64,000 bases of DNA from Escherichia coli. GTDB taxonomy: Bacteria; Pseudomonadota; Gammaproteobacteria; Enterobacterales; Enterobacteriaceae. The position numbers and the translations under genes are program-made. This document shows, one piece after another, positions 62,676 through 63,558 of this stretch. Within the stretch, counting starts at the first letter, position 1. Every line of letters starts with the position of its first letter. Location: the NCBI RefSeq assembly GCF_011045215.1, contig NZ_CP049201.1; one strand, written 5' to 3'. Below the pieces are notes generated by a model that saw nothing but the letters and a program-made list of their open reading frames with translations, did no database searches and had not been told where the DNA came from.

Positions 62676-63455
62676 TCAGATAAAGTGCTTACGCAACCGT
62701 TGAGAGAGGAAATCCAGCAGGCTGACCGTGACGATAATTAGCACCATCAGGGCGCAGGTTTGCTGGAACTGGAAACCGCGAATCGCTTCCCACAGCGTGA
62801 CGCCGATCCCGCCCGCGCCGACCATGCCGACGACGGTCGCCGAGCGGACGTTGGATTCGAAGCGATAGAGGGAGTAGGAGATCAGCAGCGGCATCACCTG
62901 TGGCAGCACGCCGTAGAGGATCTCTTCGAGCTTGTTGGCGCCGGTGGCGCGAATGCCTTCCACCGGGCCGGGTTCAATCGCTTCCACCGCTTCGGAAAGC
63001 AGCTTGGAGAGCACGCCGGTGGTGTGGATAAACAGTGCCAGCACGCCAGCGAATGGACCGAGACCGACGGCGACCACGAACAGCATGGCGAAGACCATTT
63101 CGTTAATGGCGCGGCAGGCGTCCATCAGGCGGCGAACGGGCTGGTAAATCCACCACGGCACCAGGTTTTCGGCGCTCATCAGGCCGAAGGGGATGGAGAG
63201 AACCACCGCCAGCGCCGTGCCCCAGACGGCGATTTGCAGCGTGACGGCCATTTCGGTGAGGTAATCCTGCCACTGGCTGAAATCAGGCGGGAAGAAGTCG
63301 GCGGCGAAAGTCGCCATGTTGCCGCCGTCTTTAATCAGCGTGAGCGGGGCCATTTCCGCGCCCTGCCACGAGACGACCAACACGGCGAGAACAACGGCCC
63401 AGCTCAGAAGCGAGAACCAGCTGTGCTTGGGTGGGGCGATGGTGATGGTTTGCAT
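62676..63455 (-). CDS. phnE: phosphonate ABC transporter permease (apparently intact)
   Basis: start at [11 protein letters not shown] (259 aa) with GGAG RBS; uninterrupted frame; the 280-aa track extension is translated REP sequence. Confidence 0.88.
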
Positions 63456-63469
63456 GTTTGGCTCCGGTC

Positions 63470-63558
63470 TGTAGGCCGGATAAGGTGCTTGCACCGCATC
63501 CGGCATCAACGCCTGCACATTGTCGGATGCGACGCCGGGGCGTCTTATCCGACCTACG
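63470..63558. repeat. REP elements between phnD and phnE
   Basis: gtaggccggataaggtgcttgcaccgcatccggc ... gtcggatgcgacgccggggcgtcttatccgacctac. Confidence 0.7.

Follow-up and report, generated by a model that had tools for sequence, protein, structure and literature searches.

Escherichia coli K-12 is phosphonate-deficient owing to an 8-bp duplication in phnE (PMC3463581), and both E. coli B and K-12 revertants that lack the additional 8 bp grow on phosphonate (PMC3463581). The loss of the 8 bp occurs through replication slippage at high frequency (PMC4759930), and the repeated unit has been named as 5'-GCTGGCGT, at ORF positions 407-414 (PMC6469041). The PhnCDE transporter takes up phosphate as well as phosphonates (PMC6469041). 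How does the phnE of the 64,000-nt stretch of E. coli DNA analysed here (the window) compare with these alleles? It is very probably the wild-type ON allele; the gene encodes the membrane permease of the phosphonate/phosphate ABC importer PhnCDE, and the C-P lyase operon around it is intact. The features of the operon in the window are listed in the direction of transcription, followed by the gene junctions.

63561-64000, minus strand: phnD, C-terminal 145 of 338 codons, cut by the window edge (TIGR03431 positions 188-287 of 288)
63456-63560, no strand assigned: phnD-phnE intergenic region with two inverted REP units (BIME), from REP pattern, hairpin and RF02564
63462-63465, minus strand: GGAG Shine-Dalgarno, 6 nt ahead of ATG 63455; cross-strain conservation resumes exactly here
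62676-63455, minus strand: phnE coding sequence, ON allele, 259 codons plus stop, uninterrupted (TIGR01097, BPD_transp_1)
63035-63050, minus strand: 8-bp repeat tract within phnE, two copies GCTGGCGT GCTGGCAC, ORF nt 406-421, to which K-12 adds a third copy
61930-62655, minus strand: phnF, GntR-type regulator, 241 aa (NF007486, 515.7 bits)
61477-61929, minus strand: phnG, 150 aa (TIGR03293)
60896-61480, minus strand: phnH, 194 aa (TIGR03292)
59832-60896, minus strand: phnI, 354 aa (Pfam PF05861, 512 bits)
58994-59839, minus strand: phnJ (C-P lyase), 281 aa (PF06007, 502 bits), N280S only relative to K-12
58239-58997, minus strand: phnK, 252 aa (TIGR02323)
58129-58238, no strand assigned: phnK-phnL gap of 110 nt with the second REP pair (REP pattern match 58199-58228)
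57448-58128, minus strand: phnL, 226 aa (TIGR02324)
56315-57451, minus strand: phnM, 378 aa (NF011981, 804.6 bits)
55758-56315, minus strand: phnN, 185 aa (NF007485)
55337-55771, minus strand: phnO, 144 aa (NF007530)
54577-55335, minus strand: phnP, 252 aa (TIGR03307)
Junction D-E: gap of 105 nt, REP pair
Junction E-F: gap of 20 nt
Junction F-G: 0 nt
Junction G-H: overlap of 4 nt
Junction H-I: overlap of 1 nt
Junction I-J: overlap of 8 nt
Junction J-K: overlap of 4 nt
Junction K-L: gap of 110 nt, REP pair
Junction L-M: overlap of 4 nt
Junction M-N: overlap of 1 nt
Junction N-O: overlap of 14 nt
Junction O-P: gap of 1 nt

The K-12 repeat tract reads TTC GCTGGCGT GCTGGCGT GCTGGCGC TGT, whereas that of the window (63050-63035) reads TTC GCTGGCGT GCTGGCAC TGT. 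The extra 8 bp of K-12, at the repeat tract, is the sole indel that separates the window from the K-12-lineage genome L001 and from MG1655; in the tract alignment, which took in the window, L001 and the best match PapM-32-1, only these 8 bp differ in length. RefSeq marks phnE as frameshifted in one K-12-lineage copy and as a pseudogene in MG1655. The cryptic K-12 class has three tandem GCTGGCGT-type units together with the frameshift, and the window, which has two, lies outside it. With two GCTGGCGT-type copies rather than three, the phnE frame runs through, and because the frame is continuous the product retains everything beyond residue 140, including the EAA-type loop at residues 155-186. 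The K-12 frame as it stands departs from that of the window at residue 141 and meets a stop at codon 190, ahead of the EAA loop. An earlier note on this DNA had pointed to the 8-bp duplication that makes K-12 phnE a pseudogene, and the alignment, the RefSeq flags and the literature all agree with that statement; the alignment with K-12 phnE that it proposed has now been run, and the frameshifting insertion of K-12 is absent from the window. The earlier observation and its interpretation are essentially correct, and they describe what is normal and already annotated in E. coli, with K-12 as the exception.

The window phnE (62676-63455, minus strand) opens with ATG and runs for 259 sense codons to a single terminal stop, with zero internal stops; this is the continuous frame from ATG 63455, behind a GGAG, that the earlier note describes. 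PhnE scores 310.5 bits against the NCBIfam equivalog TIGR01097 (cutoff 216.7), aligned over profile positions 9-251 of 252, and because of such a score over nearly the full profile the ORF is not a chance one. It carries the ABC-importer membrane domain PF00528 (BPD_transp_1, 90.8 bits in Pfam), and the EAA-type coupling loop at residues 155-186 places it among the membrane domains of type-I ABC importers. The partners of the family are adjacent: the 3' end of phnD is directly upstream of the window phnE, and full phnD and phnC, encoding the PhnD binding protein and the PhnC ATPase, are found on a 100%-identical contig (L012, described below). Compared with MG1655 PhnE repaired in silico by removal of one repeat copy (259 aa), the window protein differs only at R11H and V103I, and none of the other six strains in our alignment A2 has R11H. 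A 279-codon ORF at 62760-63599 on the plus strand was considered as a gene and rejected, being without a Pfam match and wholly opposite phnE.

Where does translation of phnE start? The mechanical ORF list runs the gene to GTG 63518, for a product of 280 aa, and the two in-frame upstream starts, GTG 63518 and ATG 63506, are both inside the phnD-phnE REP pair. PhnE might then begin at ATG 63506 (276 aa) or at GTG 63518 (280 aa), with a genuine REP-derived N-terminal extension, since the frame is open back to 63518 and the MG1655 record annotates a longer phnE from the ATG equivalent to 63506; we consider this highly improbable. The extension is contained wholly within the BIME, and the phnD-phnE spacer is predicted to fold into a hairpin of -51.2 kcal/mol (z -4.4). 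The identity of the BIME as a REP pair is given by a REP pattern match at 63526-63557, corresponding to one unit, and by Rfam RF02564 (naRNA4, REP-pair-derived) at 63474-63554, with 69.1 bits against a gathering threshold of 59.5. A fixed-spacing REP consensus pattern gave zero matches, and six REPs were picked up by a more permissive one that allowed the loop to vary, those flanking phnE and those in the phnK-phnL gap among them. The GGAG is 6 nt ahead of ATG 63455, and on the 259-aa form the PhnE profile starts to align at residue 17. In strains IBS28 and Cn5, another intergenic element occupies the place of the BIME, an in-frame TAA precedes the same ATG by 15 nt, and identity with the window picks up again at the GGAG. 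Furthermore, the PGAP start is the ATG equivalent to 63455 in every intact copy inspected, including that of the closest genome. A translation start at ATG 63455, behind the GGAG and just 3' of the REP-pair hairpin, is therefore supported, and phnE should be annotated from this ATG, not as the longest ORF and not in the 276-codon form of the MG1655 record. The view that the longer phnE ORF is an artefact of reading through the REP element, put forward in the earlier note, is borne out by the position of the extension inside the BIME and by the TAA of IBS28 and Cn5; the span of 62676-63558 given there is right for the phnE coding sequence but not at its 63558 end, which takes in the non-coding REP pair.

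The element that replaces the phnD-phnE REP pair in IBS28 (L006, 61-184) and Cn5 (L007, 61-121) is a palindromic repeat of the CCCTCTCCC...GGGAGAGGG type, which occurs in long and short forms. Elsewhere in the window, naRNA4 (RF02564) exceeds its gathering threshold at two further REP pairs, making three in all (32724-32795, 43330-43400 and 63474-63554), and the phnK-phnL REP pair (58129-58238) falls below it.

The genes phnF, G, H, I, J, K, L, M, N, O and P all have an ATG start, no internal stop and exactly the K-12 lengths, and their proteins differ from those of K-12 by 1-8 substitutions each. Curated NCBIfam equivalogs were passed by PhnF, G, H, K, L, M, N, O and P; NCBIfam models gave no match for PhnI or PhnJ, which are covered by Pfam PF05861 and PF06007. 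Uninterrupted ORFs, K-12 lengths and curated models thus uphold the claim that phnP through phnE are intact. Two other descriptions in the earlier note need trimming: the cluster is complete from phnE to phnP but not for phnD, with 145 of 338 codons in the window, and the usual overlapping junctions are seen as six overlaps of 1-14 nt but not at D-E, E-F, F-G, K-L and O-P. The phnC gene and the promoter are outside the window. A 7.9-kb assembly contig from run SRR11014969 (L012) equals window positions 58204-64000 at all 5797 positions, from which we infer that it comes from the same strain. This contig contains full phnD (338 aa, 2 substitutions relative to K-12) and full phnC (262 aa, 5 substitutions), both above curated cutoffs, and the 132 nt upstream of phnC equal K-12 at 131 positions. 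The phnCDEFGHIJKLMNOP set is consequently found as twelve complete genes and the phnD 3' end in the window, with phnC and full phnD only on L012. The exact PhnE protein is already public under the name of an E. coli PhnE (QIF14891.1 / WP_164475951.1), encoded on a 5,409,430-bp contig, and the exact PhnE, PhnP, PhnM and PhnI are all present on this GenBank contig and in run SRR11014969. The accession numbers are near those of the non-human-primate isolates from The Gambia described in PMC7643976, which hints at such an origin.

Given the intact phnE frame, the catabolic genes, and the transport partners and promoter region on the identical contig, it is reasonable to predict that the strain is Phn+, i.e., a phosphonate user without prior selection, a prediction that also depends on phnC, on the promoter with its Pho box and on the Pho regulon, all of which are outside the window. 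According to established pathway knowledge, phosphate starvation would lead PhoB to activate the promoter upstream of phnC, PhnCDE would then import alkylphosphonates, and PhnGHIJKLM(N,O,P) would cleave the C-P bond, freeing usable phosphorus. The strain would be expected to grow with methylphosphonate as its only source of phosphorus, with no need to select revertants beforehand. Could the operon be intact in frame and nevertheless cryptic, with one or more missense changes inactivating uptake or C-P cleavage, or with an unseen defect of the Pho regulon having the same effect? The candidate changes are PhnE R11H, PhnC G127R, PhnI G264E and PhnM R313C. Identity to K-12 is 96.3% for the phn operon and about 98% for its flanks, each protein has 1-8 substitutions, and R11H is peculiar to the window among the strains of alignment A2. 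However, every protein is full length and well above its curated equivalog or Pfam cutoff, N280S is the sole difference of PhnJ from K-12, several of the substitutions are common to the natural isolate PapM-32-1, K10 still provides a positive charge ahead of the first hydrophobic segment of PhnE, and the operon is without any indel or stop. A cryptic operon of this kind is accordingly improbable, and a Phn+ phenotype is the preferred prediction. As a normal functional E. coli phosphonate genotype, the locus has little significance beyond its correct annotation; in practical terms, phosphonate use, and phosphate uptake via PhnCDE, are predicted without prior selection.

How common is the two-copy allele? 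The phnE locus, detected by megablast with window positions 62600-63620, is present in 5395 of 5426 complete E. coli genomes. Alleles were counted among the 5426 genomes by exact 30-mers spanning the tract, with the following result.

Three-copy OFF allele: 997 of 5426 genomes (18%)
Two copies, GCTGGCGT GCTGGCGC followed by CTG: 2252 genomes
Two copies, GCTGGCGT GCTGGCGC followed by CTA: 734 genomes
Two copies, GCA variant of the window: 1 genome (PapM-32-1 only)

An exact two-copy tract is therefore found in at least 2987 of the 5426 complete genomes, and the 30-mer census assigns no allele to about 1400 of the 5395 phnE-bearing genomes, since the tract has other synonymous variants as well, such as the O157:H7 form, an interrupted tract that reads GCTGGTGT GCTGGCGC. 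Most of the remaining genomes probably have two-copy tracts with other synonymous changes. In a sample of 40 records evenly spaced through the megablast ranking, 6 had the span that is longer by 8 bp. The ON state is the majority state of E. coli phnE, in line with the literature.

Among the carriers of the OFF allele are many isolates of non-laboratory origin, with human, pig, sheep, dog and frog as sources. Bovine strain 35 (L014, NZ_CP172867.1 4406623-4407852) has the three-copy OFF allele on a non-K-12 haplotype, and slippage to OFF therefore recurs in nature. An independent phnE pseudogene, annotated as frameshifted, is found in E. coli 2014C-3011 (L008, NZ_CP027591.1 4511386-4512323), where a deletion of about 83 bp, from between two direct repeats of CCCGTTCGC, ends at the 8-bp tract.

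The reading of the window as ON could be a snapshot of a phase-variable locus, a culture in which two-copy ON and three-copy OFF cells were mixed and the assembly displays the majority allele. Slippage of the tract in K-12 has been reported as frequent and reversible (PMC4759930, PMC3463581, PMC6469041), and the three-copy allele of strain 35, on its non-K-12 haplotype, fits with such switching. We nevertheless think it unlikely: the same two-copy tract is present in an independent short-read assembly contig of SRR11014969, the second copy in the window ends in GCA and the perfect period-8 tract is therefore one base shorter, and a minority of OFF cells would leave the reading of the window unchanged. 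The ON allele thus remains the preferred reading. The GCG>GCA change in the second copy, found in 1 of 5426 complete genomes, leaves a perfect period-8 tract of 14 nt instead of 15. This variant could conceivably slow ON-to-OFF slippage and make phnE more "locked-on" than the canonical two-copy form, although we find this doubtful; the occurrence of interrupted tracts in other lineages too (O157:H7, GCTGGTGT GCTGGCGC) weakens the idea.

The window and K-12 are colinear, with an identity of about 98%, and the exact proteins of the window are deposited as E. coli; a non-coli Escherichia, considered as a source because only one complete genome reaches 99% identity over phnE, was rejected on these grounds. 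The phn operon side (54544-64000) has 96.3% identity to K-12, compared with about 98% for 1-53790, and patches of similarly low identity are found at 6-10 kb and 14-18 kb; this patchy divergence is consistent with ordinary recombinational mosaicism. At 53791-54136, in the yjcS/yjdP interval, the D-allose operon is absent: about 208 nt stand in place of K-12 positions 4,306,823-4,313,661 (alsK, E, C, A, B and R, and the 5' part of rpiB), and in the 105-codon ORF at 53819-54136 (plus strand) the last ~37 residues of the RpiB domain alone remain. Two expected elements were also found, the sraL sRNA at 25347-25487 (minus strand, 153 bits) and the fdhF selenocysteine insertion sequence SECIS_2 at 45869-45923 (minus strand, 87 bits).

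The closest complete genome to the window is that of PapM-32-1 (NZ_CP049204.1; from a baboon in The Gambia; phnE WP_053292420.1), and it is the only one of the 5426 E. coli genomes searched by megablast that is at least 99% identical over phnE. Over the phnE region its identity is 99.8%, with the GCTGGCAC variant and the REP pair as in the window, and its phnE is annotated as intact from the same ATG; its PhnE has R11, in contrast to H11 in the window. Over 25 kb the identity of the two is 98.8%, and they are therefore not the same strain; no complete RefSeq E. coli genome exceeds 98.8% over the last 25 kb (39001-64000). The layout of the D-allose region in PapM-32-1 is the same as in the window. 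Between uvrA and yjbR (window ~18381-18447), PapM-32-1 has an 8.8-kb sugar-utilisation island that is absent from the window and from K-12, encoding a tagatose-bisphosphate aldolase, a tagatose kinase, a ROK regulator, a psicose epimerase and an ABC transporter; the 67-nt stretch at window ~18381-18447 aligns to both borders of the island.

Among solved structures, the nearest to PhnE by sequence is MetI, the permease of the methionine ABC importer (PDB 3DHW, 6CVL). MetI and PhnE have a common type-I permease core that includes the EAA loop (E about 6e-6, residues 103-254), although MetI is a distant relative with another substrate and its structure is not that of a PhnE. The cryptic K-12 allele, phn(EcoK0) (phnE pseudogene b4583/b4104), has its locus, the upstream REP pair and the flanking phnD and phnF in common with the window. 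Unlike the window, from which the third GCTGGCGT copy is absent, phn(EcoK0) has this copy, and with it the EAA loop and the C-terminal membrane segments are lost. The closest functional counterparts are phn(EcoB) of E. coli B and the phn(EcoK+) revertants (Makino et al. 1991; Iqbal et al. 2004), as far as these are described in the accounts given in PMC3463581 and PMC6469041. Like the window, they have two 8-bp units and a continuous 259-codon phnE, and their phnC-phnP gene order and all gene lengths equal those of the window. The window is distinguished from them by the synonymous GCG>GCA change in its second repeat copy, and its phn operon diverges from that of K-12 by about 3.7% at the nucleotide level.
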